The translations under genes and the position numbers were made by a program. This document shows positions 6,541 through 55,104 of a stretch of 64,000 nucleotides of DNA, piece after piece. The DNA lies in assembly GCF_004010195.1 (NCBI RefSeq), contig NC_057755.1, forward strand, positions 6,059,474 through 6,123,473, in the 5' to 3' direction. The stretch's first letter is position 1; every line of letters starts with the position of its first letter. The notes beneath the pieces are model-generated. The model was not told the DNA's origin. It ran no database searches and saw nothing but the letters and a program-made list of their open reading frames with translations. Source of the stretch: Chiloscyllium plagiosum (Eukaryota).

Positions 6541-9064
6541 TCAGTTATGATTCTGAATCAGTTTATTAATTGATATAATTGGGAATATCACAAACTTTGT
6601 TAACTGTTTTCAAAACTTGTATTTGTGCAGCAGTTCAAAACCTGTAGCATATCAACAACATTTTCAAAAATGTTTTCTGAATCTGTGTAATATTTATGAT
6701 TCTTTCGTCGAATGATGTAATATAAAAAGTGTATAACATAAGTCAGCCACAAAAGAATGAAACTGCCGGATGTTGTGAAGAGTAAAATCACAGACCTCCT
6801 TCTGCTCTCCATCCCTGGGTCACTACGACTCGTTCTCTTGCTCTGACCCATCAATCCATTTGGGACTCGACTTGCCACTAAAATGTGTCTCATTGTAAGA
6901 GCATTGAGCAACAGAATTAAAACAAATGGAAGCAATGGAGTGAAGACTTCATCAAACCAACCGAAACCCACCCATCCAGGTTGAAAAAAAGTACTCTGGT
7001 TTTACTTCACAGTACCAGGGGACATGTGCAATGATCAATCGAGGTTCAAGTATGAAGTAAATTGGAACATTTTTTAAACAGAACAGAATGCAGTCAGTCA
7101 TTACAATTCCTACTGCAGCTTTCTGTGTACAAAGGTTTGCTTTCAATGTCTGGCAACAAATGGCCACAAATCTATCAAAGGAGATAATGACAGTGAACCA
7201 TACAGAACAGTCAGTGGCTACCCTATTCACAACATTAATAACAGTGCATACTGGAGTAATATCCTGGAAAGAACCAAAGAAATAATAATAATGAATCCTC
7301 CACAGAATAATATCACTGGTAATGAATAGCAGATCTGCCGAAGCCATGGCCACCATCTAGAAAGTGGTGCACTTCGAGAGACCACACCGTCCCCGAGAGA
7401 GGATGATAATCACCACCAAATTAACTGCAAGACAGAAAGGAAAAACCGTATCTGTTACCTTAATTAGTTCTTTAGGCCAGTGAGTACGATGCAGTATTTT
7501 AGTACCAAATCCCAATTAGAATTTAAAATGCCAATCAACATCAATGTTAACAATTATCATCATGTGTTTCACATACCTCTCGATTGAGGACTACTCCATT
7601 AATTAATGATATACAGATGATTACATGGCAATTTTCACATTTGAAAGTAATTGCTGTGACTGATTTGGCTTGTCTTGTAGGCATTGCATTTAGGATGAAA
7701 CAATCTTATTAGACATTACCCAAGACAAAGAGATGACAAGGCTGAATGGGAAGCTAATAGACATTATAAGGTTCTGTGGGGCAGGGAAATGCATGAATAC
7801 GGTGAATACATTCAGTCTTTTTTCCCAGGGTTGGGTAGTCGAGGGCATTAGATAAGGTGAGATGACAAAGAATGAATGGGAATGTGAGGGGATTTTTATC
7901 ATGAAGAGTGGTAGGCATGTGGCACTCAGAAGGTGGTAGGGTACTGAAATAGACTATCTGGAATTTCAACACAAGGAAACCTCATCATCTTTAAAAAGTA
8001 CCTGGGTGACCACTTTAAATGTCCTAGCATTTTAGGCTGTGGGCAACGTTCTGGAGAGGAATTTGTGCATTAAGATGAACCCAAACATCATTCGCTCTCT
8101 GCTGTACGACTCTATGACAATGATAAATATTGTCAACAACATATTGTCATGTGGATCAAGTGTTGCTGTCTGGTGACCAAGAAACAATCTCGCTCCTAGC
8201 TCTGGTATTTACAAATTATACAATATCTAACGCTCCAACCTTATACCACAACTGAGAAAAACATTCAATTTATTCAATTTCATCCAATTTACTGAAGATA
8301 TTACTCATTGCACTCGGTAAGATATGTGTTCTCAAATTCCAATGTTTGTCATAATAAAGTACAGTTGTCACTCGTCACCGGGTTTTAAATCAATGAGCGA
8401 GAGCTGCAGATTGATTAGTATTAAATATAATGACACTGAACTATCCATACGCACAGGTCTCCTCTAGGTTTTGGGCTGATAGTTTGTAACAAAAATCTCA
8501 GAAAGTGCCTGCATGATTTCCTAAACAATATAATTCCACAGGCATAGACTTTCCCAAGACAGAAAAAAGGCAGCATGGCATTTTGCTCCTGAAATTGAAT
8601 CTTGCTCGCTTGAATTTCACACTGACCAGTACTGAAAGGAAAAAAAAACCCCTCAGAAATGTCCGTGTCCTCAGGAGCCATTTCGCCAACCCATTTCCAT
8701 AAAAGGTGATAAATTGTGAACTTCAACAAAATGTTGATCTTCATTTACTCCAATGGAATAAAACTCAAAATTCAGGAGACATTTGAAAACTAAGGAGTTT
8801 TGTATTCAGTAGCGAAATCTTAAGGTTCAACTTCAATAGGATAAAACTTAAAGTTCAGGAAACCTTTAAAACTAAGGAGCCTTAAATTCTGTAAATAAAT
8901 AAAAAGACCCTCACACGTATTTTTTTTTAAATTTAACTTGAAATATAAACGACAGATCCCCATTTATACACATATATACATCACATCAATGACTCACCAG
9001 GAACATCCAGAACAGCAAGTGATGCATAATAGATTCTCATTGCACGAATAAATGTAACAAACAT
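6541..9064 (-). pseudogene. GPR139-like class A GPCR pseudogene, copy A (exon 1 9064-8998; exon 2 7424-6541)
   Basis: Exon 1 reads MFVTFIRAMRIYYASLAVLDVP with a GTGAG donor. After a ttgcag acceptor come VNLVVIIILSRGRCGLSKCTT, AMASADL, DCSVWFTV..SFDRFVAICC, LPFVLILLLNALT, DPGMESRRRSVILL and NCCTNT. There is an in-frame stop at 7357-7359, a frameshift in the A-run near 6985 and a deletion after TM7. Confidence 0.9.
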
Positions 9065-9190
9065 GTTTCCATACAAGGTTACTATCACCCCATGCTGTGG
9101 GAGCTTCTCTGCATCAAATACTGAGTTATGACAATCACCGAAACTTTAATTTGTACCAGGTTTGCACCTCCAGGGAATACTGAAATTACC

Positions 9191-12100
9191 ACATCGTCAG
9201 TGGGGCAGAAATGGTTGCTTGATGTTCCAGGGTTTAAACCGTTTAAAAAGAACAGGGAGGGTGGAAAAAGAGTGAGCATTGCAAATCAGAGAGTGCATTA
9301 AAGCTACAGAAACGAAGGTTGTTGAGGACGGTTTGTCTACTGAGTCGGTATGAGTGGAAGTTAGGAACAGCAAGGGAATAGCCACCACATTGGGGGTTTT
9401 CTACAGACCACCTAATTTCAGTAGAGAGATTGAAGATCTCACAGGCGGGCAGATTCTGGAAAAATGCAAAAGTAGCAGGGTTGTTGTTAAGGGTGATTTC
9501 AAATTTCCCAATGGCGACTGGAACCTCCGAAATGTAGAGGGTTTGGATTGAACCAATTTTGTCAGGTGTGTTCAGGAGGGTTTCCTTACTCTGTACCTCA
9601 GACTGACCGAATAGGGGAGAGGCCATTTTGGATTTGATGCTTGGCAACGAGCCATGACAGGTGTCAGATCTCGCGGTGGGAGAGCACTTTGGACAGTGAT
9701 CAAAACTGCATCACATTTAGCATAGCTTTGGAAAGTGAAAGGAGCAATTACAGAGTGACGATATTTAATTGGGGAAAAGGAAATTATAACGCTTTCAGAC
9801 AGGAGTTGGGAAGTAAAGACTGGGAGCAATTGTTCCACTGAATGGGCACAGACAACATGTGGAGACTATTTAAGGAGCAGTTGTTGCGAGTGATGCACAA
9901 ATTTGTTCCTCTGAGGCAGGTAATGTGAGAGTATGATTGACGAGATTAAGATTACGGTAAGTCACGGATAGTAGTGGGAAAGTGTGTGTGGAGTCAGAGG
10001 ACATATGGGAAGCACTAAATGCACTTTTCGACAGTATTCACTCTAGAAAACGACATGTCGTCGAGGAGACTACTGAGATACAGACTACTAGACTTGGTGG
10101 AATTGAGGGTCACAAGGAAGAGGTATTCGAAATCCCGCAGAGTGAGAAAATAGAAAACTCCCCTGGGCAGGATGGGATTTATCGTAGGATCATCTGGGAA
10201 TTCAGGGAGGAGATTGCCGAGCCTTTGACATTGATCTTTAAATCGTTATTGTCTACAGGAATAGTGCCAAAAGATTGGAAGATAGCAAATGTGTTTCCCC
10301 TGTTCAAGAAGGGGAGTAGAGACAGCCCTGATAATTATAGACCAGTGACTCTTACTTCAATTGTTGGTAAAGAGTTGGTAAAGCTCATAAGAGATACGAT
10401 TTATAATCATCTAGAAAAGAATAAATTGATTAGGGATATGCAGCATGGTTTTGTGAAGGGTAGGTCGTGCCTCACAAAACCTATTGAGTTATTTGAGAAG
10501 GTGATCAAACAGGTAGATGAGAGTAAACCGATTGATGTGGTGTATATGGATTTCAGCAAGGCATTCGATAAGGTTCGCCATAGTCGGCTACTGTAAAAAA
10601 TGCAGAGGAATGGGATTATGGGATTTATAGCATTTTGGATCAGTAATTGCCTTGCTGAAAGAAGACAGAGGATGGTGGTTGATGGAAAATGTTCATTCTG
10701 GAGTGAGGTTGTCAGTGGTGTACCGTGATGGTCGGTGTTGCGTCCACTGCTGTTCGTCATTTTTATACACGACCTGGATGAGAGTGTAGGAGGGTGGGTT
10801 AGTAAATTTGCCGGTGAGACTAAGGTCGTTGGAGTTATGGGTAGTGACGAAGGATGTTGTAGGTTACAGAGAGACATAGAAGTGCTGCAGAGCTGGGCTG
10901 AGAGGTGGCAAATGGAGTTTAATGCGGACAAGTGTGAGGTGATTCACTTTGGCTGGAGTAACCAGAATGCAAAGCACCGGGCTAATGAAAAGATTCTTGG
11001 AAGTTTAGATGAGCAGAGAAATCTCGGTATTCAGGTACACAGATCCTTGAAAGTTGCCACCCAGGTTGACAGGGTTGTAAAGAAGGCATACAGTGTATTA
11101 GCTTTTATTAGTAGAGGGATCGATTTTCGGAATCATGAGGTTATGCTACAGCTGTACAAAATTCTGATGCGGCCGCACTTGGAGTATTGTGTACAGTTCT
11201 GGTCACCACATTATAAGAAGGATGTGGAAGCTTTGGAAATGGTGCAGCAGAGATTTACTGGGGTGTTGCCTCGTATGGAGGGAAGGTCCTACGAGGAAAG
11301 GCTTATGGACTTGAGGCTGATTTCGTTGGAGAGAAGAAGGTTGAGAGATGACTTAATAAAGACATATAAGATCATCAGAGGGTGAGATACGGTGGCCAGG
11401 GAGAGCCTTTTTCCAAGTATGGTGACGGTGAGCACGAGGGGGCATAGTTTTAAATTGAGGGGTGATAGATATAGGACAGATGTCAGAGGTAGTTTCTTTA
11501 CTCAGAGAATAGTAAGGGTGTGGAATGCTTTGCCTGCAATTATAGTAGATTCGCCAATTTTAAGTGCATTTAAGTCGTCATTGTACAAACATATGGACGT
11601 ACATGGAACAGCATAGGTTAGACGGACTTCAGATTGGTATGAATGGTTGGCGCAACATCGAGAGCCAAGGGGCCTGTACTGCGCTGCAATGTTCTATGTT
11701 CTAAGAGGTAAGATTAAGGAACGTTGGATGACGAGAACAGTGGAATTTCTAGTCAAAAGGAAGAAGGCAGCTTAGGTAAGGTGGAGGATGCAAGGATCTA
11801 GCACAGCTTTAGAGACTTACAGGCTTGTTGGAAAGGAGCTCAGAACTGAACTGAGGAGAGCCAGGAGGGGGCACGAAAAAGGCTTTGCAAGAAGAATTAA
11901 GGAGAACCCAAAGGCGTTTTACTCATACATGAGGAAAAAGAAAATGATCAGGAAGAAGGTAAGGCCGATCAGAGATAGCGGGGGGAACTTGTGTGTCGAG
12001 TCTGAGCAGATAAGGAAAGCTCTAAATGAGTTTTTGCTTCGGTTTCCACCAAGGTAAGGGAACTTGTTATATATTAAAACTTAGAGGAGCTGGGATACAG

Positions 12101-13730
12101 TCTTGACCAGATCAAGTTTGATGAAGCTGATGTGCTGGAAATTGTGGAAAACATTAAAATTGATAAGTCCCCAGGACTAGACCAGATTTATCCTAGGCAG
12201 CTCCGGGAAGCGAGAAAGGAGGTTGCTAAGCCGCTCGCGAGGATATTGGCCTCCTCACTCTCCATGGGTGTGGTACCGGAGGATTGGATGGAGGCGAATG
12301 TGGTTCCTCTTTTCAAAAAGGGTAACAGGGAAAGAATTGGTAACTACAGATCAGTCAGTCTTACGTCTGTGATCAGCAAAGTTTTGGAAAGAATTCTGAG
12401 GGATAGGATTTATGACTATTTGGCAAAGCACAGTGTGATTAAAGGCAGTCAGCACGGCTTTGTGAGGAGCAGGTCATGCCTCACAAATATTATTGAGTTC
12501 TTTGAGGAGGTGTTAAGACAGGTCGACGATGGTAGAGCCGTGAATGTGGTGTATATGGATTTCAGCAAGGCATTTGATCGGGTTCCCCATGGAAGCCTCA
12601 TTCGTAAAGTCAGGAAGTATGGGATACAGGGAGATTTGGCTATCTGGATTCAGAATTGGCTGGCTGTCAGAAGGCAGAGAGTGGTTGTAGATGGGAAGTA
12701 TTCTGCCTGGAAGACAGTGTTGAGTGGGGTCCAGCAGGGTTCTGTACTTGGGTGTCTGCTCTTTGTAGTTTTTATAAATGACTTGGAAGAGGGTTCGAGG
12801 GGTGCGTTAGTAAATTTACAGATGACACAAATGTTGGAGGTGTTGTCGATAGTACAGAGGGCTACTGCAGACTGCAGCGCGACATAGACAGAATGCAGAG
12901 CGGCTGAGAAATGGCAGATGGAGTTCGACCGGGATAAATGCGAATTGACGCATTTTGGAAGGTCGAACTCGAATGCTGAAGGTAGGATTGAAGACAGGAT
13001 TCTTGGCAGCGTGGAGAAACAGAGGGATCTGGGTGTGCAAGTAAATAGATTCCTCAAAGTTGCCACCCAAACGGATAGGGTTCTTTAGAAAGCATATGGT
13101 GTTTAGGTTTTCATTAACGGGGGATAGAGTTTAAGAGCCGTGAGATATTGCTGTAGCTCTACAAGTCGCCGGTGAGGCCACACTTGGAATATTGTGTCCA
13201 GTTCTGGTTGCCTGGTTGCCTACTATAGGAAATATACAGAGGTTTGGAGAGGGTGCAAAGAAGGTTTACCACGATGCTGCCTGGACTGGAGGGCTTCCCT
13301 TATGAAGAAAGGTTGAATAGGCTTGGACTTTACTCTCTGGAGAGAAGGAGGAAGAGAGGAGACGTTATAGAGGTGTCCAAAATAATGAGAGGAATAGATA
13401 GAGTCAATAGCTAGAGACGTTTCCGCAGGGAAGGATTGAAAGTTAGGAGAAGTCATAGAATGAAGATATTGGGAGGAAGGTATAAAGGAGACGTCAGACT
13501 TAGTTTTTTTTTACACAGAGAGTTGTGAATGCATGGAATGTGTTACCAGCGGTGGTGGTGGAAGCAGAGTCATTGGTGACATGTAAGCGACTGCTGGACT
13601 TACACATGGATGGCAGTGAGTTAAGGGAGCATAGATTGTTACTATATTTTACAGTAGAAATAAATCTCGGCACAACATCGTGGGCCAAAGGGCCTGTTCT
13701 GTACTGTACTTTGCTATGTTCAATGTTCTA
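9191..13730 (+). mobile_element. CR1 LINE (APE + RT), 5'-truncated, split by a nested CR1
   Basis: APE motifs (LGVFYRPPN, GDFKFP) at 9191-9923. The reading resumes in frame at 11705 (PLRQV|RGKIKERWMT) and includes RT motifs (QHGF, VYMDFSKAFD) and a tgttcaatgttcta tail. Confidence 0.9.
9924..11702 (+). mobile_element. CR1 LINE nested inside another CR1
   Basis: ORFs 9982-10596 and 10735-11385 give RT motifs (NYRPVTLTS, QHGFVKGRSC, YMDFSKAFD, LEYCVQFWSP). It has its own aatgttctatgttct tail and a possible short TSD, taa. Confidence 0.9.
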
Positions 13731-13960: not shown

Positions 13961-14480
13961 TCCTCCCCTATCAGCTTTCCGTAGAGACCACTCCCTCCGC
14001 GACTCCCNNNNNNNNNNNNNNNNNNNNNNNNNNNNNNNNNNNNNNNNNNNNNNNNNNNNNNNNNNNNNNNNNNNNNNNNNNNNNNNNNNNNNNNNNNNNN
14101 NNNNNNNNNNNNNNNNNNNNNNNNNNNNNNNNNNNNNNNNNNNNNNNNNNNNNNNNNNNNNNNNNNNNNNNNNNNNNNNNNNNNNNNNNNNNNNNNNNNN
14201 NNNNNNNNNNNNNNNNNNNNNNNNNNNNNNNNNNNNNNNNNNNNNNNNNNNNNNNNNNNNNNNNNNNNNNNNNNNNNNNNNNNNNNNNNNNNNNNNNNNN
14301 NNNNNNNNNNNNNNNNNNNNNNNNNNNNNNNNNNNNNNNNNNNNNNNNNNNNNNNNNNNNNNNNNNNNNNNNNNNNNNNNNNNNNNNNNNNNNNNNNNNN
14401 NNNCTGACCTGCTGTGCTGTTCCAGCAATAAAGTTTCAACTTTGATCTCCAGCATCTGCAGACCTCACTTTCCCCTCCTA
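13961..14480 (+). mobile_element. 5'-truncated Penelope-like element spanning an assembly gap, 12-bp TSD
   Basis: PPLSAFRRDHSLRDS lies before the N-run (14008-14403) and the PLE tail ctgacctgctgtgctgttccagc follows it. TSD atatgatagcta at 13949-13960 and 14481-14492. Absent from the paralogous site near 6040. Confidence 0.85.
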
Positions 14481-14970: not shown

Positions 14971-17704
14971 TTATTTACGAATCAGTTTATTAATTGATGT
15001 AATTGGTAATTTCACCAACTTTGTTAACTGTTCTCTAAACTTAGACTGAGTCACCCCATAGATAAATGTGTTTGTGCAGCAGTTTAAAACATGAAGCATA
15101 TCGCCAACATTTTCAAAAATATTTTCTGAATCGTGTCGTCTTTGGGATCCATTCGTGTAATATAATATAAAAATCCGATAACATAAATCAGCCACAAAAG
15201 AATGAAACTGCCGGATATTGTGAAGAGTAAAATCAAGATTTACACATCCTCTCCATCTCTGAGTCAATATGACTCATTTTCTTGCTCTGACCCATCAATC
15301 CTTTACGGACACGACCTGCCACTAAAATGTGTCTAACTGTAAGAGCATTGAGCAGCAGAATTAAAACAAATGGAAGAAATTGATTTAAGACTGCATCAAA
15401 CCAATCGAATCCCACCCATCCAGGCTGAATAAAGTACTCTGGCTTGACATCACAGAACCAGTGGACATGTCAATGATCAATCGAGGTTCAAGTATGAAGT
15501 AATTTGGAACATTCTTTAGACAGAGCAGAATGCTGGCTGTCATTAGAATTCCTATGGCAGTTTTCTGAGTACAAAAGTTTGCTTTCAATGTCTGGCAACA
15601 AATGGCCACAAATCTATCAAAGGAGAAAATGACAGTGAACCATACAGAATAGTCAGTGGCTACCCTACTCAGAACATTAATAATACTGCATACTGGAGTA
15701 ATGTCCAGAAAAGAACCTGGGAAATGATAATAACTGATCCGCCACAGAATAATCTCAGTGTAATGAAAAACAGATCTGCTAAAGCCATGGCCATCAGGTA
15801 GAGAGTGGTGCACTTTGAGAGACCACACTGTCCCCAAAAGTGGATCATAATCACCACCAAATTAACTGCCAGACAGAAAGGAAAAATATTATCTGTAACC
15901 TTAATTAGTTCTTTAGCCCAGTGAGTAGGATGCAGTATTTTAGTATCAAATCTCAATCAGAATTTAAAATGTCAAGCTGCTTCAATGTTAACAATTATCA
16001 TTATGTGATCCACAAAACTCTCAATTGAGGACTACGCCATTGATTAATGATGTATAGATGATTACATGGCAATTTTCACATTTAAAAACAATTGGTGTGA
16101 CGGATTTAATTTGTCTGTTTTGGCATTGCATTAACATATGAAGCAGTCTATTTAGACGTTACACGAGACACAAAGAAGTTTAAGGGTAGCTAATAGATTT
16201 GTATACGATTCTGTGGGGCATGGAAAGGCATGAATACGGTGAATTCACCTTAGGTAAGGTGAGTTGACAAAGAATGAAAGGGAATGTGATGGGCTTTTTT
16301 AACATGGAGAGTGGTACACATGTGGCATGAGCTGTGAGCAAAGGTGGTTGATCCAGTACCTTAGAACATTTGAAAGGCATTTGGACAAATACATTGATAG
16401 GAAAAATTAGAAGGACATGGGCCAAGTGTAGGGAAATGGGGTTACTGTGGATGGACATTTGGTCAGCATTGACCACTTTGTGCTGAAAGGCCTGTCTCTG
16501 TACTGTCGGTCTCTAAGATTCCATTACTCTATGATAGGATGGATATAAAGTATCTGTTCCCCTCAGCCGAAGGGTTAATGACCTTACTTTAAAGTGAAAG
16601 GCACGAGATTTTGAGAAGATTCGCAGAAGTTTTTTTTTTCACTCAGAAAGTGGTAGGGTTCTGAAATGTACTCTCTGGAAGGGCAACACTAGCAGAAAAT
16701 CTCATCAGCTTTAAAATGTATCAAGCTGAGCACATCAAATGTCTCAGCATTGAAGGCTATGGACCACGTTCTGGAGAGCTTTTGGTGCATCATTCACTCA
16801 AGAGACTCCTCTCTACCTTATGATTCTATGATTATGATGAATATTGTCAACAATATGTTGTCAGGTGGATCAAGTGTTTCTGTCTGGCGAGCAAGTTACA
16901 ATCTCACTCCAAGCTCTGTTATCTTCAAATTATACAATATCTAACTCTCCGATCTTATACTACAACTGAGCAAAGCAATCAATTGATTCCATTTCATCCA
17001 ATTTACTGAAGATATTACTCATTGCCCTCGGTCAGTTATGTGTTCTCCATTTCCACTGTCTCTCTTAATGAAGTACAGTTGTTTGTCCTCACGGGGGTGT
17101 AACTCACTGAGCAGCAGCTACAGATTGATTAATATTACATATAAGAACACTGAATAATCCAAAGTACAGGTTCTCTCCAGGATACCCAGGTTTTGAGCTG
17201 TGAGTGTGAAACGAAAATCTCACCAAGTGCCTGCACGATTTCCTAAACAATACAATTCCACATTCATAGACATTCCCAAGACAGACAAAAAGGCAGGAAG
17301 GCATTTTGCTTCAGAAATTGAATCTTAATCAGTTGAATTTTACACTGACAAGTACTGAAAGGAAAAAAAAATCCCTCAGAAATTTCTCTGTCCTCAGGAA
17401 CATTTTGCCAGCCCTAGTCATTTCTATAAAAGGTGAAAAATTGTGATCTCAAGGAAAAGGTTCATCTTCATTTACTTCTATGGAATAAAACTTAAATTTC
17501 AGGAGACTTTTAAAAACTAAGCAGTTTTGACTTCAGTAGCTAAACCAGAAGGCCCTCGCATGTAGTTTTGCCATTCAAGTTGAAACATAAACGACAGATC
17601 ATTTCTCAAACATAACTTCATCACATCAATGATTCACCAGGTACACCCGGAACAGCAAGTGTTGCATAATAGATTTTCATGACACGAATAAATGCATCAA
17701 ACAT
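14971..17704 (-). pseudogene. GPR139-like GPCR pseudogene, copy B (exon 1 17704-17638; exon 2 15865-14971)
   Basis: Exon 1 reads MFDAFIRVMKIYYATLAVPGVP with a GT donor. Exon 2 has VNLVVIMI..GQCGLSKCTTLYLMAMALADL, SFDRFVAICC and NCCTNTFIYGVTQSKFREQL. At least three frameshifts (about 15760, 15465, 15240). Confidence 0.9.
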
Positions 17705-19319
17705 GTTTCCATTCAAAGTTACTGTCCCTCAGTGCATTCAGAACTTCTCTGCATCAAATACCGAGTTATGACAATCACCGACACTTTAATTTGTACCAGG
17801 TTTGCACTTCGAGGGAATTCTGAAATTACAAAATCTTCAAATTAAATTTACAAAAGCACAAATTAACGCAGCTACAACTGCAAGTTGACTCGCTGTTGTG
17901 CTAAAGTATATTTAGCATTTGGCGTCACGAATATAATTTGGCTGATCATATTTAGCTCATGCATCAATGTTAATGTTGTTTTTCAGAAAGTGGTGTTTGC
18001 TGAAAAACACAAGCATTTTGCATTCATGCTGTCATAATTTTCTGAAGTTTGTTGTTACCCTTCAGTAGTTAACATCCAAGTATGAGCTCATCTTGCTCAG
18101 GGTTTCTGCCCAGCCCTCTGCGATGTGACTATGCTTGTGAATGTGTGCTTTTTCAATCAACTTATTGATTACATTTAAATAGATAATTGAGTTCCAATAT
18201 GCACCTCGATACCTTATTTTGGCATTGTTCAAATTTAGGATTTGAGATGACCCATTGTGCAACCTGGGTTTGCTTATCATTCTGAATACAATTTTAAACA
18301 GCATTGGGCATGTTGAAATTGAACTTAAAAACGAAAATGGGAGCTCATTGAATTCCCACTCTACTCAGTAACCTTACATCTGACTGAATACTGAGAGGAA
18401 ATCTGACTGACCTGTTCTGCAGGTCCTGAGAGAAACTGCACAAGGGTGAAATATACTTGGCATTGTTTCCATTAATTCTGTGACATGATTCACCAAGTAA
18501 TGATTATTATCTCAGTAAATATGGAAGCAGCTCTATTCCTCTGTATCAATGTCACGACCTCAGCAATGCTTCCTGCTTCTGTAAACCTAACCAGCAGATG
18601 CAACCCGCCCTGATCTGTCAAACACATGCACTCTCAATCTCTGGCTGATTGTTTCTTCTTCACCATTTTCTTCACAATTGGTCCATTCATCATCTATATT
18701 AGTGCACAGAGATGTTCACTCAATAACCTTCATATTATACACAACTGCTCAGTTTTAACTTCTTTTCACTTCACCTGAGGAAGTACTTCGACAGCTTATT
18801 ATTTCAAATAAGCCTATTGGACCATAACCTGTGTCGCAAGATTTCAGACTTCGTTATATTTCAAGGCAGCATTGTGTTCATAATTAACCTTTGTATCTTT
18901 GATTATAATAGTTATTATAAGGTGCTGGAGGAACTCGGTAGATATGGCAGCATCTGTGTAGACAGAAACAAACTGAACATTTCCAGTCTTGCGATGAGCA
19001 TGCAGGTGCTGTAAAACATAGAACCGTCGGAAATAGATGCAGGACTTGGCCATTCCTGCCACCTATGTGGGAAGAGTGCTCATACTGTTGGGGGAGTCCG
19101 AAACTGCGAGGTCACAGTCCGAGAATAAGGGACAAACCATTAAGGACTGAAGGATCATACCCGATCATGCATTCCCAATTTCACATTCACACATTGTCTC
19201 CATACCAGTTGATACTGTGAATGACAATAGCCACGTGCAGCTTTCTCCAGATGAAGGAACTGAGAGCAAAAGCAGAAGTGATTATGTTGCAGCTTTCTCA
19301 AGAGGTGGTGAAGGCACAC

Positions 19320-20544: not shown

Positions 20545-20940
20545 AAACTGTAGCTCGTTTTGGAGGAATTTTACTTTATCTCCTGCCTGGGCATCCTACA
20601 GCCCTGAAGACTAAAAATGGGTTTAGCCAAATTGAAGTAACTTCCCTTCCCATCCCCTAACTCCCTTCCCAGTCCCTCCAGGTCCCTTCTATGGCTCCCT
20701 GCAACCAACTGGATTCATTTCTTACGTTGTCCAACCAGATTGTACCATTTACCTGACTTCAGGGATCCCCACTTCACAACACTGATCACACTGCCCCCTT
20801 TATCTGCAGCTCCTCCTACACCTATTCCCAATCCTGATGTAAGGTTAAACCCAAAAAGTCGACTTCTGCACTTCCTGACTTGCTGCCTGACTTGCTGTGT
20901 TCTTCCAGCATCCTGCCTATCAACTCTGTCGGACACATGT
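20545..20940 (+). mobile_element. Penelope-like element 3' end with degenerate hammerhead motif (20830-20865)
   Basis: Remnant of the C-terminal LG.LQP motif, a pyrimidine-rich UTR, then aatc-ctgatgt-aaggttaaaccc-aaaaagtc-gact and the ctgcctgacttgctgtgttcttccagc tail. Confidence 0.6.
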
Positions 20941-20944
20941 TGAT

Positions 20945-21260
20945 ATCCATGCCCAGTCCAATATGAGCTGAAAGCCTGCAGCAATGGAGAGAAGCAAGGC
21001 AACCTAAAGATGCAGAACAGACGAAGTCCGTCATATTTCTTATCAGCATCTCTGCTCGATTGATACTTCTATGGTTGATATTTCGCATTTTCTTTTCGTT
21101 ACACCTTTGGAAAAGCATGTTAAACAGAGTCTTAAATGATTTTGCAAAGTTTTGGATTCATGTAATGGAATTTGAATTGCTGTCAAATACAATTATTTAT
21201 ACAGCAGCTCAGGCTAAGTTCAGGGAGAAAATTAAGTATAGTTGGAAATCGCTGGTTTAA
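20945..21260 (+). pseudogene. GPR139-like GPCR pseudogene fragment, copy C (ICL3 to C-terminus)
   Basis: LKACSNGEKQGNLKMQNRR, then a frameshift, then SVIFLISISARLILLWL...NTIIYTAAQAKFREKIK, homologous to copies A and B. Confidence 0.8.
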
Positions 21261-24190: not shown

Positions 24191-24904
24191 GAAGAAAGCT
24201 GCTTCATTTTTCAAGTGCCTTCATTTATCACTTCAACATTGTGGTTTTCGCTGATGGTTGTGATACGTTCTTCCATTTATTAACAACACGTACATATAGT
24301 ACCGTTTGGACATAGTTATTTGTGACTTTCTTTTAACAAAAAGGAAGTAAAATGTTTGAACGAGAGCACATAAACTACCACAAAGTATCAATTGAATGCC
24401 AATGAAGAGCACTGCAGAATCAATCAGGAATGTATTAACGTCTGTAATGGTGGAGTAAACAAAAAAAAATGTTCTGTAACTTTAATTTTGTTTTCATTTT
24501 GTCGGAGTTGTGCAGTCTTCTCTCTGCATAATGTGTAATTTCAGACGAATGGAATACATCGCAGCACCATGAACGGTTTACTTTTGCATTCAATGAGAAA
24601 CATGACGTGGACATCACGTACCTGTTCTGCAATGCAAAAGCGAATTAATATTTCATATTTCCTGAAGATTAACAGCCTGGGGCTCACCATTGGCCAAACA
24701 CTGCTGTAAGCACAATATAACCAATGACATTTGACATGATATAAATGAATGGTGCTGCACTTTTATCGTCACAAAAGAAAAGACAAAGAGATTAATCACA
24801 GTACAACGCGAAATACATGAACGTAGAAATGTCTTTGCAAATGTATGACCTTAAAAAAAGTGTACTACATGACCCTTGCTGTGGTTGGCCTGCTTGGTAA
24901 GTGA

Positions 24905-25655: not shown

Positions 25656-25685
25656 GGTGGTTCAATTATGAAAAAGCACACATTT

Positions 25686-28060: not shown

Positions 28061-28067
28061 CCCCAAC

Positions 28068-28370: not shown

Positions 28371-28389
28371 TTATAAAATTAATGACTGG

Positions 28390-32171: not shown

Positions 32172-32215
<44 letters not shown>
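31690..32215. repeat. Compound (GT)n/(CA)n/(GA)n low-complexity region
   Basis: Visible dinucleotide tracts, including a pure (GT)n run at about 32174-32212. Confidence 0.85.
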
Positions 32216-41400: not shown

Positions 41401-42020
41401 ATGAAAGGGGAGTGGTCAGTTCTCCAGCTGAGCAGTTTAGTCCGGAACTAGTTGGGAGTTCAACAGTGACTGTTTTAAGGGGGTTTGCTTATGGGGACAG
41501 TTGTGCATATTCGGAAGAGCATGAGTAAGTCTGGTTTGGATAGACTGACTTCTGTTGGATTCATTTATTCTGTCCTTTGTGTTTCATTGTGTAATTTTGT
41601 GAATAAATGTCTGTCTGCTTTAAAAATTAGAATTCAACCTAGCTATCTTACTCCAGGTAATTCTCACGTACACTTTCCGAAACAAATTGTAAAATTATTA
41701 TCTCGATTGCCTGCTGAAGCATGTTTTGTGTGGTCTGCCCAAGTCCACAACAGTTGGAATATTCGGAGTATGTAGAATACTATGATGATGCAACCAGGGA
41801 ACTATCTCAATTATAAAGTGGTAGCAATCGAGGAGATGTATCCTTCGATTCAGAGGCAAGAATGTCTAGTTAGATAGGCATTCTTAGTTCTCTTCTAGGC
41901 CTTCTGAAAAACATTGGCAGTTTCGGTAAACTGGCAAAGTTTACAAGATACAGTCTCGTTAAAGTCAACTAGATAGATTCAGGTTAACTGTGAAATTGTG
42001 AAGGTAAAATCGATTTTAAA

Positions 42021-45087: not shown

Positions 45088-47068
45088 TGTGCCTGAGACA
45101 GAATGAAACACTCAACAATCTTTCAAGTAGTGTGAATGTACTAGCCAATACTTGCGCTGTTGGCATTATTGGTAAGTCCTTGAGTCCAGTTATACTTGTG
45201 CAAAACGTTTTTTTAAAACTCTACACCATCATTCTTTGTGGAAATTTGACATGGTTTCAATGTCTTTGGTTATTTTCAAACTTTGCGTTTCTCGTTGTTT
45301 CACCAGTAGTTGATTTTTACTATTGTTCCCTTCCGTCTGCTGAAGCAGGTTGAATTATGAATGCTTTACACATAATTTAGTTCGAATACAGAACAGGCTG
45401 AGTCAGCATTTATTCTCCATGTGGAGCTTCACTTCAGAAGGCGGTGGATAGATGCCTTCTTAAACCACTGCAGACCAATTGGTCTAAGAGCATTACGAAG
45501 CACAGAAACAGAACCTTCGGTCTAACTCGTCCATGCCTTACACGTTTCCTGAATTGAACTTCTCTCTTTTTTTGCCTGTGTCCTGCTACAAACATTCTCT
45601 CCATGTAACTGTAAAAATGTCTTTTAAATGAACCAGCAAAACTGAAGGATCAGCGATGTGTTTCCAACCTACGAAGGTGAGTGGCTTGAAGGGTATTTGA
45701 ATTTTTCACCACATCTACTGTAATTGAGTTAATATATTAATCTGAGGCAATTGTTGCGAGTTAGCAGGCATGCATTGTGGCTCAATGATAAGCACTGCTG
45801 CCTCACAATGTAAGGTACCTGTCTTCAATTGCACCATCAGGTGACTGTCGGTGTGGAGTTTGCACATTTTATCCATGTGCGCGTGAATAGTGAATTGGTC
45901 ATACAAAATGTCCCATAGTGTTCAGGTATGTGTACGTAAGCTGCATTATTCAGGGAAAATGCAAAGTGACAGGATAGGGGAATGGGTTTGGTTTGAATAC
46001 TGTTTGGAGTGTCAATGTGTATGTGTTGGGCCAATTGGCCTGTTTCTACACTGTACATGTTCTATGTTAAGCTAATGTTTTTGCTGTGACTCTGATCACG
46101 AAGAGGACTCTCTTTCTTTATTTTTTGTCCAGTTAACTCCATGGCAATTGTGATCCTAATTCGAGGCAAGTGTGGAATTATGGGCTCTCTAAATGCGTTA
46201 CTCGGTATTTGTTGGCAACGACTTTTGCACATCGAGTTCTCTTCATCCTTAATATCTTACTGGACCGAGTTAACGTTCTGCATTTCCCGGTTAATTTCTT
46301 AACCATCACATCTTTGTTTGCCTTGAGAACTGTTGTGTTTCTTGCAGATCTATATGGGTCAGTTTCGTTCACAGTTGACTTCACATTTGGTCTGTTTGTA
46401 CTGATATGTTGCCAGAAACCACGAGCAAGATATTGTCACGATGAAACTATTTTTGTCGTTATAACAACTCCGGATGCCGTAGGCTGTTGTGATGAAGTAC
46501 TTCGTATTTTGTATTTTTCCCTGCGATTATTTTTGACAACGTACCGTCGGTTTTACATGATATTACCGGACTTTTATACATCATTATTTTGGAAAATGTG
46601 TGTATGGATAGACACCACATTTATACCGTTTCTTCCAATTATATTGATTTTGGTATTCAATGCTCTGCCTCTTAGGCACGTAATAGAAGCCAACCACATC
46701 CGCTCTCGCCTCCAGAGCCATGGAAATGGAGGGAATATACTGATCCAGAGGTGGCAAACTGGAGAAAATCCATCATCTTGCTCTTTGCATTGTCTGATCA
46801 TTTTATATTCCTCTGGATGACACATTTCATACGCCAATTCAGCTTTCAAAAAATAAGTTATAAGTATGATGTCAAGATTTTAAATGCTCCAACACTTGTC
46901 TGGCAAGAAATTGGATTCCTGCTACGTTTTCTGAATTCGTGCAACAGTATCTGCATTTATGCTCTTACACAGACTAAATTCAGAGAAGAGTTAATCACTG
47001 GAATAAAATATCCATTTACTCGGCTTGTTAAGATATGCAATCAGAATGCACGTCTGACGTCTCTTTGA
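45088..47068 (+). pseudogene. GPR139-like GPCR pseudogene, copy E (exon 1 ends 45171; exon 2 46133-47068)
   Basis: Exon 1 remnant Y*PILA/AVGII with a GTAAGT donor at 45172. After a tttgtccag acceptor come VNSMAIVILIRGKCG (frameshift) LSKCVTRYLLA, PFLPIILILVFNAL, RKSIILLFALS and NSCNSICIYALTQTKFREEL. The DRF motif is lost. The start position is approximate. Confidence 0.85.
45765..46070 (+). mobile_element. HE1/V-SINE-like SINE in the GPCR intron
   Basis: gtggctcaatgataagcactgctgcctcaca...gtgtggagtttgcacatt...ggcctgtttctacactgta. Confidence 0.75.
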
Positions 47069-48528: not shown

Positions 48529-49287
48529 TGTTTCCAATTAAACCTGTTGGACTACTACCTGGTGTTGTGCGATTTTTAACTTTGTACACGCCAGTCCAAC
48601 ACCGGCATCTCCAAATCAAGTATAGGTAGAAAACGACACAGATGCACAGAAACTGAATGAGACGGGAACAGAAAGAGTTAAACAGAATGCAATACTGACA
48701 AACACAAATAGGAAAAGATAAGGAGAGGAAATGTTTGACCATTTACAACTCAACAACTGGCTGCAACAGAGAAATGTATATATCCCAGTTTTGTTTCAAT
48801 GCTGGTTATCATTTGAACAAACAAAGCAACACCATTAATGTTGGCATAATACAACACTCACATTCTTGTTGCTAATTAACGTAATCACAAATGTCATTTG
48901 GAGTCTCAGTCCTAAATATATCTTTCTTTCCCCAAGAACTGGATTAATTCATTTGTCTATTACAACAAATTACAAAGTGATGATGATTTAACTTCCTTTT
49001 TAAAAATTAGACGTGTCAGTTCAGCGTATATTACAGAGAGGCTGATCAAAGCCCAAAGTAGCTCCGGAAAATGCAATGAAGATGTTCGAAACATTTAACA
49101 ATGTCAGGAAATTTTACTACATGATTACGGCCAGCATTGGTGTTCCGGTTAAGTGAAAACTTTTTTTTTGTTATTTTTGAGTGGACATTAGACTGAAACC
49201 TGTGACTGATCATGCTACATGAACATCTTCTGATCACATAATCGTAACAATGTATTTTTCCATCAACAAACTGCATTATCTCCAGTT

Positions 49288-51956
49288 CATAGAACATAGA
49301 ACATTTACAGCGCAGTACAGGCCCTTCGGCCCTCGATGTTGCGCCGACCTGTCATACCAATCTGAAGCCCAACTAACCTACACTGTTCCATATACATCCA
49401 CAAGCTTGTCCAATGACGAATTAAATGTACTTAAAGTTGGCGAATCTACTACCATTGCAGGCAAAGCATTCCATAGCCTTATTACTCTCTGAGTAAAGAA
49501 ACTACTTCTGACATCTGTCCTATATCTATCACCCCTCAATTTAAAGCTCTGCCCCCTCGTTCTCACTGTCACCATACTTGGAAAAAGGCTCTCCCTGTCC
49601 ACCCTATCTAACCTTCTGATTATCTTATATGTCTCGATTAGGTCACCTCTCAACCGCCTTCTCTCTAACGAAATCAGCCTCAAGGCTCTCATCCTTTCCA
49701 CATTAGACCTTCCCTCCATACCAGGCAACATCCTAGCAAATCTTCTCTGCACCCTTTCCAAAGCTTCCACATCGTTCTTACAATGTGGTGACCAGAACAG
49801 TACACAATACTCCAAGTGCAGCAGCAACAGAGTTTTGTAAAGCTGTAGCATAATCTCATGGTTCTAGAACTCAGCCCCTCTATTAATAAAAGGTATGCCT
49901 TCTGCATAACCCTGTCAACCAGGATGGCAACTTTCAAGGATCTGTGTACCGGACACCGAGATCTCACTGCTCATCTACGCTACCAAGAATCTTACAATTA
50001 GCGCAGTACTTTGCATTCCGCTTACTCTGACCAAAGTGAATCACCTCACATTTTGCCGCATTAAACTCAATTTGCCACTTCTCAGCCCATCTCTACAGCT
50101 TATCTATGTCTCTCTGTAACCTAGAACATCCTTCGTCACTATCCACAACTCCAACGACCTTAGTGTCGTCTGCAAATTTACTAACCCTCCCTTCTACGTC
50201 CTCATCCAGGTCGTTTATAAAAATGACAAACACCAGTGGACACACCTCCGACCCTTGCGATACACCACTCGTAACTGTGCTCCAGAATGAACATTTCCCA
50301 TCAACTACCATCCTCTGTCTTCTTTCAGCAAGCCAATAACTGATCCAAACTGCTTTATCTCCCACAATCGCATTCTTACACATTTTGACCAAAAGCCTAC
50401 GTATCGAACGCTTTGCTGAAATCCATATACACTACATCAACCAATTTACTCTCATCTACCTGTTTGGTCACCTTCTCAAAGAACTCAATATGGTTTGTGA
50501 GGCACTACCTACCCTTCACAAAACCGTGCTGACTATACCTAATCAATTTATTCTTTTCCCCATGTTTATAAATCCGATCTCTTCTAACATTTTCCAACAC
50601 TTCACCAACAACTGAAGTACGGCTCACTGGTCTATAATTACCATGGTTGTCTCTAATCCCCTTCTTGAACTTGGGAACCACATTTGTTATCCTCCAGTCT
50701 TCTCGCACTATTCATGTAGACAACGACGATTTAATGATCAATGCCAAAAGCTCAGCAACCTCCTCCCTGGTTTCCCAGAGGATCCTAGGATAAATCCCAT
50801 CGGGCCTAGGGGACTTATCGATTTTCACACCATGCAGGATTTCTAATATCTCCTCCTTGTGAACCTCAACCACATCTAGTCTAGTAGCGTGCATCTCAGT
50901 ATTCTCCTCGACAACATTGTCGTTTCCTACAGTGAATGCTGTCGAAAAACATTCGTTAACTGCTTCCCCACGTCCTATGACTCCACACACAACTTCCCAC
51001 TACTATCATTGATTGGCCCTAATCTTACTCTCGTAATTCTTTTATTCCTTAAATACCCTAAGAGAGCCTTAGGGCTTCCCCTGATCCTATCCGCCAAAAA
51101 CTTCTCATGTCCACTCCTGGCTCTTCTGAGCTCTCTCTTTAGGACTTTCCTGGTTACCTTGTATCCCTCAAGCGCCCTAAATGAGCCTTCACATCTCATC
51201 CTAACATAAGCATTCTTCTTCCTCTTGACCAGAGATTCCGTTCCTTCGTAAACCATGGCTCCCGTGTTCTACAGCTGCCTCCCTGCCTGACAGGTACATA
51301 CTTATCTAGGACACACAGGATCTTTTCCTTGATTCCTCTTGACCAGAGAATCCGTTCCTTCGTAAACCATGGCTCCCGTGTTCTACAGCTTCCTCCCTGC
51401 CTGACAGGTACATACTTATCTAGGACACACAGGATCGTTTCCTTGAATGAGCTCCACATTTCTAATGTGCCCATCCCCTGCAGTTTCCTTCCTCATCCTA
51501 TGCTTCCTCAATCTTGCCTAATTACATCGTAATTGCCTTTCCCCCGGCTGCAACACTTGCCCAGTAGTATACATCTTTCCCTTTCTACCACTAAAGAAAA
51601 CTTAACAGAATTGTGATCGCTATCACCAAAGTGCTCACCTACTTCCAAGTCTAACACTTGGCAGGACTCATTACCCAGTTCCAAACCTAATGTGGCTTTG
51701 CCTATGTTGGCCTGTCTACATAGTATGTCAGGAAGCCCTCTTGCACGCTCTGGACAAAAACCTTACTCATCCATAGTACTCGTACTATAGTATTCCCAGT
51801 CAATATTTGGAAAGTTGAAGTCCCCCATGTCAACTACCCTGCTCTCTCACTCCTATCAAGAATCATCTTTGCTGTCCTTTCCTCTACATCTCTGGAACTA
51901 GTCGGAGGCCTATAGAAAACACCAAACAGGGTGACCTCTCATTTCCTGTTTCTAAC
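49288..51956 (-). mobile_element. CR1 LINE (APE + RT), 5'-truncated, with a 114-bp internal tandem duplication
   Basis: Minus-strand ORFs give FINDLDEDVEGRVSKFADDTK, NYRPVSRTS and LEYCVLFWSP; catagaacatagaaca tail. Confidence 0.92.
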
Positions 51957-52617
51957 AGTAATTTATTCCATCTTCAGAACTAAGGAGAATCGTGGTTTAT
52001 AATTCTCACTGAAATGTTATGGAGGATATTGTCTTTCTGGAACACCAATGAAGTTGAACATGACATCATTCCGGCAAGTCGCAGAATTCCTGGAGTATGA
52101 GGACTATTGCACAGTGCAAATTTGAATTGGGTATTAACAATATCTGCAGCCAATAATCTGGTCCCAGGTTAGCATGTCCAATAGTGAGTACCTGTCAGTG
52201 TAATCGCTTGTGATCCCGTCACGTGGAAGCTGTGGCATTTCCACATGCACCGCTTGCTACCTGGTGGCCTTGGAAATGGCAGATTTATTTGTGCTTAGTA
52301 TTGGAATTATCCCTTTGTGGGTCTGTTCATATTATTTCCCTGGGTCTTTCGTGGATATCACGCACATCAGTTGTGTTACCTCTTCCCTGCAGTCTGCTGC
52401 CATGAACTGCTTCTGTCTGATTCACTGTCACTTTTTCCAATGACCAGTTTGTGGCCATTTGTTGCCAGGAGCTGAAAAGAAAATATTGCACTATGAAAAC
52501 TGCAGCTGCTGTTCTAGTGGCAAACTGTATGCTGCTCTGTATAAGAAACACCCTACAAGTCTTTATTTATAAACCTGGGATGATGATTGATCATATATCT
52601 TGGCTTTGTGTTGTAAA

Positions 52618-54647
52618 CCTATGGCCCCTTGACAATGACCCCACCCCCCACCACCAAACCAGCATCTCCTCGACCATCCATAACCTCATCACCTCATGGG
52701 ATCTCCCATCCACTGCCTCCAAATTCATAGTCCCAGAACCCTGCTCCGCCCATTTCTACCTCCTGCCCAAAATTCACAAACCCAACTGCCCCGGCCGACC
52801 CATTTTCTCAGCCTGCTTCTGCCCCACCGAACTCATCTCTGCATACCTCGACACTGCCCTGACCCCTTAGTCCAAGAACTCCCAAACTATGCTCGGGACA
52901 CCACCCACGCCCTCCACCTCCTCCATGATGTTTGCTTCTCCGGCCCCCAATGCCTTATCTTCACGATGGACATCCAGTCCCTATACACTTCCATCCGACA
53001 TTCAGAAGGCCTGCTTCTTCCTCTCCCGCCGACCCAACCAGTACACTTCCACTGACACCCTCCTTCGACTGACTGAATGGTCCTCACTCTTAACAACTTC
53101 TCCTTCCAATTATCCCACTTCCTCTAAACCAAAGGAGTAGCTATGTGCACCCACATGGGCCCCAGCTATGCGTGCCTCTTCGTCGGATACGTGGACGACT
53201 AACTCCGCCCCCATGCCTAACTACGCCTCCACTCCTAGTTCCAGCCCCACACTAGGTCTTAGCTCCCAGCCCTGCCGTATTTTCAACATCCCTCCAGACC
53301 TCTCTCACTCTGAGGGTTAATGATCAGTCCTCAGCAGAGGCCTCACCTTTATCCCCGTGCGCCCTGATCAATGAGTTCGACATGCGGTTAGACATCGAGC
53401 ATTTCTTCCGCCGCCTTCACTGCTGCACCTACTTCTGCAATAAGGACTCTCGCCCACCCTCTGTAGACCACTTCTCCCGCCTCCAAAACACCCCATCCAC
53501 CTGGACACCCCGTGATGGCCCCTTACCCGCCCTCGATCTCTTCATATCCAACTGCCACATGGACACTTACTGCCTCAACTTGTCCACCCCTCACACCCAC
53601 TCTAACTTCTAACCCTCACAACGCGCAGCCCTCCACTCCCTCCGCTCCAACCCCAACTTCACCATCAAACCAGCAGACAAGGGATGCGCAGTGGTAGTTT
53701 GGCGCACCGATCTTTATATCGCTGAAGCGAGATACCAACTCACGGACACTTCCTCCGACTGCCCCCTTAACCATGACCCCATGTCCCGGCACCAAACCAT
53801 CATCTCCTAGACCATCCATAATCTCATCACCTCAGGGGATCTCCCATCCACCGCCTCCAACTTCATAGTCCCATAACCCCGCACCGCTCGTTTCTACCTC
53901 CTGCCCAAAATCCACCGCATCTCCTCAACTTCCCGCACCTCCGCCCGTAAACCCCGACCCTCCAATCGCCACCAGGACAGAACCCCACTGGCCCTCACCT
54001 TCCACCCCACCAACCTCCAGACACATCGTATCATCCTCCGTCATTTCCGCCATCTCTAAACAGACCTCACCAACAGGATATATTTCCCTCCCCACCCCTA
54101 TCAGCGTTCCGGAGAGACCACTCCCTCTGCGACTCCCTCATCAGGTCCACAGCCCCACCAACCCAACCTCCACTCCTGGCACCTTTCCCTGCAACCGCAA
54201 GAAGGGCAAAACTTGCGCCCACACCTCCCCCTCATCTCCCTCCAAGGCCCCGTTGGATCCTTCCATATCCTTTGCAAATTCACCTGCACTTCCACACGCA
54301 TCATTTACCGTTTCTGCTGCAGACGATGTGGTCTCCTATACATTGGGGAGACAGGCCGCCTACTTGCAGAACGTTTCAGGGAATACCTCTGGGACACCAC
54401 ACCAACCAAACCAACCGCCCTGAGGCTGAACACATTAATTCCCCCTCCCACTCCGCAAGGATATGCAAGTCAATGGCCTCCTCCATCGCCAGACCCTGGC
54501 CACACGACGCCTGGAGGAAGAGCACCTCATCTTCCGCCTAGGTACCCTCCAACCACCTGAAGAAGGGCTTATGCCCAAAATGTCGATTCTCCTGCTCCTC
54601 GGATGCTGCCTGAAACTGCTGCGCTTTTCCAGCACCACACTTTTCAA
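52618..54647 (+). mobile_element. Penelope-like retroelement (Neptune-type RT, Cys linker, GIY-YIG), rearranged, 14-bp TSD
   Basis: FYLLPKIHKPNCPGRPI, LIFTMDIQSLYTSI, KGVAM.THMGPSYACLF, IKPADKG, GTFPCNRKK.KTC and CGLLYIGETGRLLAERFRE. Terminal repeat with a hammerhead-like motif at 54557. TSD ctttgtgttgtaaa at 52604-52617 and 54648-54661. Confidence 0.92.
54552..54590 (+). ncRNA. Minimal type I hammerhead ribozyme motif at the PLE 3' terminus (mutated)
   Basis: CTGAAGA-a-GGGC-ttat-GCCC-aaaa-tg-TC-gattct. The G12 and stem III changes are consistent with CpG decay of GAAACGTC. Confidence 0.7.
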
Positions 54648-55104
54648 CTTTGTGTTGTAAAGGCAACCTCCTATACTCAGCCTGTATGAGTGGTATTCGA
54701 TTGGTTTGTTTCGGTTTTAATCGAATTGATCCTGTTCGTTTCTATTCTATTGTCCAATGCACTGATGTAAAGCATATTTTAGCGACAAATCGAGCCCATA
54801 AGGAGCGGATGCCTCAGAGCACGGCAGCAAATCTCAGACAAATTGTGTCTCACCTGAGAGCTGATATTGCACCCTGGTCTATACATTCCTGAATTTGATC
54901 AGGACAGAATGATATTTCTCTTCTTCCATCCATTGAAGTAAATGTTGATATCAGTTTTAAAAATTTTACGTGTGAGAGAGAGAGAGAGACAGAGTGATGT
55001 AACTATGTGTGTGTATGTGTGTGGTATTTAGAGTCCCCAGTAGAGGAGGATCATTCCGTGACTGTATATGAGTGAGTGACATTCACAGAGTCCAGCAGAC
55101 GGTT

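Follow-up and report, generated by a model that had tools for sequence, protein, structure and literature searches.

We analyzed a 64,000-nt stretch of Chiloscyllium plagiosum DNA (NC_057755.1, positions 6,059,474-6,123,473, forward strand), referred to as the window. A six-frame scan with a profile built from 72 full-length homologues detected six class A GPCR copies, A to F, every one of them disrupted (0/6 intact). The best profile E values were 4e-68 for A, 2e-66 for B, 6e-42 for E, 7e-27 for F, 6e-14 for C, and 1e-13 for D; the best unrelated matches in the same scan had E values above 1. Pfam 7tm_1 matched two pieces of A above the cut-off and B below it, and the other six of the nine pieces gave no match. 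An earlier sequence-only reading had proposed at least six copies at these positions and strands, all broken, and the profile scan and lesion mapping agree with it.

Copies A and B lie on the minus strand. Coding exon 2 of A (6541-7424; Pfam 7tm_1 and profile) runs from TM1 to helix 8 and carries a TAG stop at 7357-7359, one extra base near 6990, and a 25-nt deletion near 6618. Its coding exon 1 (8998-9064; profile) keeps an intact phase-1 GT donor. Between A and B are decayed LINE-like reverse-transcriptase elements on the plus strand (9940-13560), recognized by RVT_1 matches and self-comparison. Coding exon 2 of B (14971-15865) covers the full span and has four 1-nt deletions, at 15760, 15470, 15234, and 15136; its coding exon 1 (17638-17704) also has an intact phase-1 GT donor.

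The other four copies are on the plus strand. C is a heavily decayed 3′ remnant (20934-21260, the end of TM5 to helix 8) with a short repeat-element fragment at its 5′ edge. D is a 3′ remnant (28077-28387, ICL3 to helix 8) with two stops and one frameshift. A first exon at 24829-24896 (+), which has a consensus GT donor, one extra base in a run of A, and a TATAAAT at -89, is probably exon 1 of D. Coding exon 2 of E (46133-47068) covers the full span with five frame changes, and its DRF now reads GLF. In F, coding exon 1 (49082-49148) has lost its donor GT, and exon 2 is split into a 5′ part (52192-52617, TM1 to ECL2) with frameshifts and one stop and a 3′ part (54648-54832, ECL2 to TM5) with the second stop and a frameshift; we found no TM6-7 of F in the window. 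The two parts are separated within ECL2 by a 2-kb retroelement fragment (52618-54647, +) with a 14-bp target-site duplication at 52604 and 54648. We take this element to be Penelope-like; its GIY-YIG match is weak (E 0.0085, below the cut-off). The DR motif is lost from both E and F, as are 16 of 57 conserved residues in E and 8 of 35 in F.

In each gene, a short coding exon of 67 nt is followed, after a phase-1 intron, by a single long exon. A short phase-1 first exon had been attributed to A, B, and E. This held for A (9064-8998) and B (17704-17638), and D has one upstream (24829-24896); the exon at 49082-49148 is located past the 3′ end of the 46-kb copy (E) and so belongs to F. Profile, tblastn, and blastn searches of the window found no exon 1 for E. 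In the 1500 bases preceding six first exons, a 26-bp period occurred only as a two-copy hit before F, and peaks of lag-26 autocorrelation fall on CA-rich simple repeats. Two orphan first-exon remnants, both weak matches that have lost the donor, are present beyond the six copies. For one, at 23017-23071 (+; E 0.23), no exon 2 was found. The other, at 283-350 (-; E 7), would represent one more copy that extends past the edge of the window, and a TATAAAT at about -91 supports the weak match. Four motifs said to be shared by all copies were literally present only in part, with 2/4 in A, 3/4 in B, 2/4 in D, and 0/4 in C, E, and F; for C, only the last in-frame piece was compared.

Reads and contigs were compared with the lesions of copy A alone. 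The 25-nt deletion is spanned, and left unrestored, by contigs of a second study that carries the same species label and by contigs of a related organism, so it is no assembly error. Contig support for the extra base, which sits in a run of T, was mixed: it is absent from one same-species contig (depth 9.07 of 15.8). The stop codon was not covered by the contig rows returned. A single-cell run, of which 2 in 100 reads were read, gave eight reads on copy A, all partial and less than 95% alike. Summed contig depth at the DRFVAICC motif was rejected as a measure of copy number.

A and B are tandem duplicates, 84% alike in the exon and 77-84% in the intron and flanks. Their dN/dS of 0.61 (95% interval 0.41-0.95) would fit genes that stayed functional for a while once duplicated. 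D is a duplicate of C, and the downstream spacer is common to both. Copy E belongs to a different subfamily, sister to Stegostoma P0090, with a branch of 0.58 versus 0.13 for this intact sister. Self-comparison and domain search revealed retroelements filling the array. Copies were born by local duplication, as with A/B and C/D, and were killed by point lesions, deletions, and retroelement insertion, with many paralogues elsewhere remaining intact.

The window contributes dead copies only; working members are elsewhere. Among the matches listed, 119 of 120 homologues are from elasmobranchs (sharks, rays, and skates), 45 of them from Heterodontus on at least 17 distinct contigs, and 106 of 120 keep the TM2-TM7 core in one frame. 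At 50% identity, 139 clusters reach E 1e-30. These homologues are predicted models, and the counts are not a genome census. Near-identical tandem gene models have consecutive accessions, and copy number among the matches listed varies widely across species. No chimaera names appeared among the 120 listed homologues or the 30 clusters looked up, which does not imply absence. A metagenome contig scan for DNA of intact paralogues returned 18 loci, all at 25-33% identity and of no use for dN/dS. We found no literature description of this elasmobranch receptor family, and PMC12294341 and PMC13113109 did not bear on it. The sequence-only reading had stated that sharks carry many GPR139-like loci and had proposed tandem expansion with heavy pseudogenization; both the expansion and the pseudogenization are supported, and many paralogues elsewhere are intact.

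Intact members are about 325 residues long, with seven helices and almost no N-terminal domain. PF00001 was present on all 120 listed homologues (one row also has PF10328), and the predicted seven-helix model has a pLDDT of 81.7. In 84 paralogues, the signaling motifs are nearly invariant: D3x49, R3x50, N5x58, and Y7x53 occur in all 84, W6x48 and N7x49 in 83, and C3x25 in 74; P6x50 occurs in only 10. In domain, predicted fold, and motifs, these are class A GPCRs.

The binding pocket of the shark paralogues varies far more than this signaling face. Across the 84 paralogues, the rate at pocket sites is 2.4 times that at other TM sites (1.64 versus 0.69, p 1.7e-7). Because the numbering of the pocket sites was counted from anchors, a few may be off by one. 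Extracellular loops have a rate of 1.57, intracellular loops 0.68, and the cytoplasmic half 0.47. The pocket also exceeds non-pocket sites of the outer half (1.06, p 0.003), and the excess is present in TM5-7 alone, which lie outside the search query (p 7e-5). Within single species, the pocket stands out less strongly from outer non-pocket sites (p 0.046, 0.012, and 0.093). In 22 amphibian orthologues (0.19 versus 0.74) and 98 ray-finned relatives (0.45 versus 0.67), pocket sites are the slowest. Among sixteen Heterodontus paralogues, identity is 73% overall and 51% within the pocket; for the amphibian orthologues, the figures are 76% and 98%. This sets paralogues beside orthologues and so does not compare like with like. 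All rates are at the amino-acid level, and we do not claim positive selection at the pocket. A hypervariable pocket with a conserved cytoplasmic half fits the earlier suggestion of variation resembling that of chemoreceptors or immune receptors.

We consider it probable, at roughly 70%, that the window represents part of a tandem array, now decayed, belonging to a ligand-diversified, birth-and-death sensing repertoire that underwent a large expansion in elasmobranchs. Judged by sequence, its members are one orphan class A GPCR lineage within the GPR139/FMRFamide-receptor superfamily. Each paralogue would have its own ligand, a small molecule or short peptide bound within the helical pocket, and all would signal through one shared G protein, which by analogy with GPR139 may be of the Gq type. 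Because the pockets are distinct and the G protein shared, we propose that the family forms a repertoire of sensors for outside chemicals.

As to where such a repertoire would act, we give roughly equal odds to chemosensory cells facing the outside and to cells of the immune system or of barriers. In the immune or barrier case, which is plausible but falls short of an even chance, leukocytes, gut, gill, and skin would use the receptors to detect peptides released by microbes or by damage, much like formyl-peptide and Mas-related receptors, and the family would play no part in smell or taste. A hypervariable pocket and fast gene turnover are typical of such immune families too, and the invertebrate relatives are peptide receptors. 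Catshark genes of the OR family are expressed in spleen and stomach (PMC11979771). This alternative concerns the site of action and not the repertoire itself.

More tentatively, the family could be an additional vertebrate chemoreceptor family, dominated by elasmobranchs and derived from one conserved orphan receptor that amphibians still possess, with olfactory, taste, or solitary chemosensory cells as candidate sites of expression and more genes than all known shark olfactory families together. Counting against the repertoire reading in general, the 50 genes with the highest specificity in a catshark brain-plus-olfactory library include no GPCR (PMC11979771). No other vertebrate group appears to have an olfactory repertoire as small as that of sharks, with a mean of 43.8 genes and a range of 20-62 (PMC10869828). 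Cartilaginous fishes are reported to carry fewer olfactory receptor genes than other vertebrates, in counts that cover known families only (PMC10869828, PMC11979771). The Heterodontus clusters of our family number at least 45, equal to the whole known shark olfactory repertoire. A chemoreceptor role, if true, would explain why this repertoire is small despite many sensory neurons. With its diversified pocket and fixed signaling face, and hidden under a misleading GPR139 label, the family is a direct candidate for a system of sensing or immune surveillance that has so far been missed.

We regard a mostly non-adaptive expansion, in which repeat-rich, recombination-prone arrays multiply copies and variation arises from relaxed selection, as unlikely. 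The lack of intact copies in the window, the retroelements throughout the array, and the wide differences in listed copy number between species would suit it. Relaxed selection, however, would not spare the cytoplasmic half while raising the pocket rate. Moreover, the deviation at 63 conserved sites has a median of 1.6% in database paralogues versus 6-33% in the window copies, and most listed homologues keep the core in frame.

Still less credible is that the family consists of duplicated GPR139/GPR142 orthologues sensing L-Trp, L-Phe, and related amino acids. Database names say GPR139, and the PDB entry closest in sequence is human GPR139 (E 2e-14 with a single sequence, 2e-18 with the profile), which is also, marginally, the first by fold. 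However, it is only 23% identical and scores 69.5 bits against the family profile, versus 221 for amphibian, 205 for coelacanth, 187 for teleost, and 145 for amphioxus receptors and 112-122 for unnamed invertebrate-type receptors. The pocket residues of GPR139 are given as D2x61, E3x29, E3x32, R6x51, and N7x38 (PMC12775434). The matching five sites are among the fastest in the shark paralogues, and, when mapped by eye, none of E3x32, R6x51, and N7x38 ranks in the top six residues at its site in the 84 paralogues. The close tie to aromatic amino-acid sensors drawn in the earlier reading is thus not supported: simple Trp/Phe sensing is probably not the function, and on sequence grounds the family is GPR139-like by label only.

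The idea that faulty assembly created the breaks, and that intact genes exist among the copies, deserves almost no credence: the extra bases in homopolymer runs of copy A (missing from one same-species contig) and the first exon of D would allow it, but the unrestored deletion in A, the target duplication flanking the insertion in F, the loss of most of the gene from C and D, and the lost conserved residues in E and F speak against it.

The preferred reading, a ligand-diversified elasmobranch repertoire, can be set against known receptors. Human GPR139 and GPR142 belong to the same class A superfamily branch, but GPR139 is a single conserved gene, whereas the shark family is a large array with pseudogenes. 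Three amphioxus-type queries returned 24 proteins and no true GPR139 or GPR142; our trees (LG+G4) were built without either, and the careful tree dropped 25 of 69 rows. In these trees, the sister of the elasmobranch expansion is a conserved amphibian receptor (support 98/96), named "probable GPR139" (Pleurodeles P0214, Xenopus P0281, and others) and 31% identical to P0002. It shares with the shark family a DPE...RRRS segment before TM6. Across 20 listed rows, each species contributes a single cluster, and the gene is apparently single-copy; its pocket is conserved, it keeps P6x50, K6x51, and N7x39, and it offers a route to the ancestral ligand. Single-copy coelacanth and ray-finned groups fall in the same broad chordate clade (99/98). 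By clade, these may be the GPR210 sets, although Ensembl ids were unmatched; GPR210A/B are gar, coelacanth, and fish orphans beside GPR139/142 in the study of Rinne et al. (2019, PMC6504862), in which neither sharks nor cartilaginous fish come up in the main text. GPR139/142 have a common origin with invertebrate FMRFamide-type receptors (PMC8514136). By profile, tree, and Atlas features, invertebrate FMRFamide, MIP/sex-peptide, and Srw-type receptors are the next relatives, about 25-33% identical and in a separate clade outside the chordate group. Nematode Srw expansions are a parallel. Among canonical chemoreceptor families (OR/TAAR/V1R/V2R/T1R/T2R), no olfactory-type Pfam was found on the 120 listed homologues. 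OR, TAAR, V1R, T2R, and FPR/MRGPR arrays are of unrelated lineage, and the shark family has two coding exons. Tandem clusters, pseudogenes, a variable pocket, and a conserved signaling face are hallmarks of chemoreceptor and FPR/MRGPR arrays, and in all four the shark family resembles them.

The six GPCR-like copies described in the sequence-only reading lie where it placed them, A and B on the minus strand and C, D, E and F on the plus strand, and every one is disrupted by lesions. With a profile built from 72 full-length homologues, the matches to A, B, E and F had E values between 4e-68 and 7e-27, those to the remnants C and D were near 1e-13, and unrelated matches lay above E 1. Copy A contains a stop codon (7357-7359) and, near 6990, an additional base; it has also lost the end of TM7 to a 25-nt deletion. 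B carries four 1-nt deletions. C and D retain the 3′ third alone. In E, whose exon 2 lies at 46133..47068, the frame changes five times and the DRF motif is gone. F no longer has its splice donor, contains two stops, and is interrupted by a 2-kb insertion flanked by a 14-bp target duplication. A run of 396 Ns (14008-14403) overlaps none of the copies. The four motifs said to be shared were recovered literally in part: two in A, three in B, two in D and none in C, E or F. At family-conserved sites, the window copies deviate at 6-33% of positions, compared to a median of 1.6% and a maximum of 27% for database paralogues. The locus is a graveyard of dead copies.

To examine the breaks in reads and contigs, we focused on copy A. 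Two contigs span the deletion without restoring the 25 bases: one (6480-6789; two other letters, one gap) comes from a second study with the same species label, the other (6581-7043; 33 other letters, one gap) from a related organism. We infer that A was already dead before these organisms diverged. The related organism lacks the extra base, as does one contig from a same-species run (depth 9.07 of 15.8), which may represent an allele or a paralogue. Summed contig depth in the bin containing DRFVAICC was 14,396, 38,129 and 40,080, versus about 11-25 in adjoining intron bins; these values give no copy number and are a sign of many similar copies only. Eight partial reads from a single-cell run fell on A, all below 95% identity, and reflect paralogues at most. 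Another contig (X1 record 1) is 89% identical to A across exon and intron (7196-7897); on this similarity, it is a paralogue outside the window, nearer to A than B is.

A and B are duplicates of a single unit spanning 3.4 kb or more; their similarity is 84% in exon 2 and 77-84% across the intron and flanks. Their dN/dS of 0.61 (interval 0.41-0.95; 282 codons) fits two copies that were at first both under constraint and later released. C and D have their 3′ end and spacer in common (65-70% similar). By its place in the tree, E is a member of another subfamily, where its partner is an intact protein of Stegostoma (support 100/99; branch 0.58 for E versus 0.13).

A short phase-1 first exon had been proposed for A, B and E. 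We found this 67-nt exon for A, B and F. Upstream of D lies a form of it that is one base longer (68 nt), and for E none was found in the window. The exon at 49082 is not the first exon of E, because it lies downstream of that copy. Remnants of two further first exons, both weaker matches, lie near 23017 and near 350 and suggest that the array comprises eight gene units and runs on leftward. TATAAAT occurs at -89 and -91 ahead of two of six first exons, and there is no TATA box within 500 bases upstream of the A or B first exon. No 26-bp array was seen ahead of the first exons. A and B may have an untranslated upstream exon. Their similarity extends 135 bases beyond the ATG on its upstream side and stops close to a CAG that resembles a splice acceptor (9064-9199 and 17704-17839, minus strand).

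The window also contains several repeats. Direct repeats at 32842-33466 and 41203-41757 (73-80% alike), with reverse transcriptase and RNase H matches at 40101-40955 and LINE pieces nested inside, delimit a probable decayed LTR retrotransposon (32842-41757), which occupies the expected site of E's first exon. A common 80-90 base repeat end lies at the 5′ break of C and D (20832-20910, 27971-28060) and at the end of the F insertion (54556-54641), in differing orientations; it recurs at 1822, 2222, 2342 and 25690. A 373-bp tandem duplication (81%; 24918-25656) begins just within the intron after D's first exon. Two-copy duplications of 114 bp (97%; 51219-51446, within a LINE in F's intron) and 167 bp (81%; 62609-62944) were also present, as was a 33-bp array of 12.5 copies (57741-58162), whose open frames of 115-148 codons had no Pfam match.

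Searching with TM2-TM4 of A yielded 163 matches. Of the 120 that were listed, 119 carry a shark, ray or skate name (Heterodontus, 45; Pristiophorus, 19; Heptranchias, 13; Mobula, 13; Scyliorhinus, 10), one is unnamed, and 106 contain TM2-TM7 in a single frame, bearing out the suggestion that shark genomes carry many such loci. A profile of 30 members retrieved 139 clusters at 50% identity (E up to 1e-30), and all 17 high-scoring clusters looked up were elasmobranch. These counts are lower bounds rather than a genome census. The loci appear in databases under automatic names, and we found no description of the expansion in a search of open-access main texts. The family is real, mislabelled and, so far as searched, undescribed.

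The proposed GPR139-like identity did not hold. Among PDB entries, human GPR139 (23% identical) is the closest by sequence and, by a negligible margin, also by fold. Against the family profile it scores 69.5 bits, below salamander (221), coelacanth (205), teleost (187), amphioxus (145) and unnamed invertebrate-type (112-122) receptors. Judged from these comparisons, the family is not GPR139. In excerpts of PMC8514136 and PMC12208981, GPR139/142 are grouped with FMRFamide and MIP receptors. In a careful tree of 44 rows, none a true GPR139/142, built under LG+G4 with TRH receptors as outgroup, one clade (98/96) unites the elasmobranch genes with an amphibian group; this clade is nested in a chordate clade (99/98) with amphioxus and two fish/coelacanth groups, and a quick 69-row tree agrees. 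Support for the elasmobranch genes to the exclusion of the amphibian gene is weak (83/68). The GPR210 sets of PMC6504862 probably correspond to these fish and coelacanth groups, with identifiers unmatched. The amphibian gene occurs once per species (20 of the 120 rows listed), suggesting that it is single-copy. This group, which includes Pleurodeles P0214, is a conserved orphan receptor of salamanders, a caecilian and frogs, wrongly labelled GPR139; no amniote was among the 120 rows listed. Several near-full-length GPCR frames on metagenome contigs (L001-L018), 25-33% identical to the family, are probably host animal DNA bearing its own expansion.

To measure pocket variation, we scored 28 positions that we take to be the canonical class A pocket, numbered by counting from anchors in the reference protein P0002. 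Across 84 elasmobranch proteins (75 of the 120 chosen by length, plus nine representatives), the mean relative rate in the pocket was 1.64, compared with 0.69 for the remaining TM sites (p 1.7e-7); extracellular loops averaged 1.57 and intracellular loops 0.68. The corresponding pocket rates were 0.19 versus 0.74 in 22 amphibian proteins and 0.45 versus 0.67 in 98 ray-finned proteins. The elasmobranch excess persists against outer-half non-pocket sites (1.06, p 0.003) and in TM5-7 alone (p 7e-5), a region that the search query did not cover; inside individual genera, the excess over outer sites is weaker (p 0.046, 0.012, 0.093). With overall identity matched, pocket residues are retained at 51% among 16 Heterodontus paralogues and at 98% among amphibian orthologues. 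Family sites at GPR139 residues E108, E105, D84, N271 and R244 (PMC12775434, in part) rank 1, 2, 4, 6 and 11 in rate among 193 TM sites. The family bears a clear signature of ligand diversification.

A structure model has seven helices, a very short N terminus and an ECL2 hairpin. The DR, N5x58 and NxxxY motifs are fixed in the family, and ICL3 and helix 8 are conserved, with a variable pocket. We favor, at a probability of roughly 0.7, a reading in which each paralogue would bind different small molecules or short peptides, all would drive one common G protein, and tandem duplication would generate new specificities while the majority of copies die, as in the window. The G protein would be Gq-type by analogy with GPR139 (PMC6367278, in part). 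As for olfactory receptors, cartilaginous fishes are counted at 43.8 genes, the fewest of any group, in PMC10869828, and eight OR-type and 35 V2R-type genes are listed for the catshark in PMC11979771.
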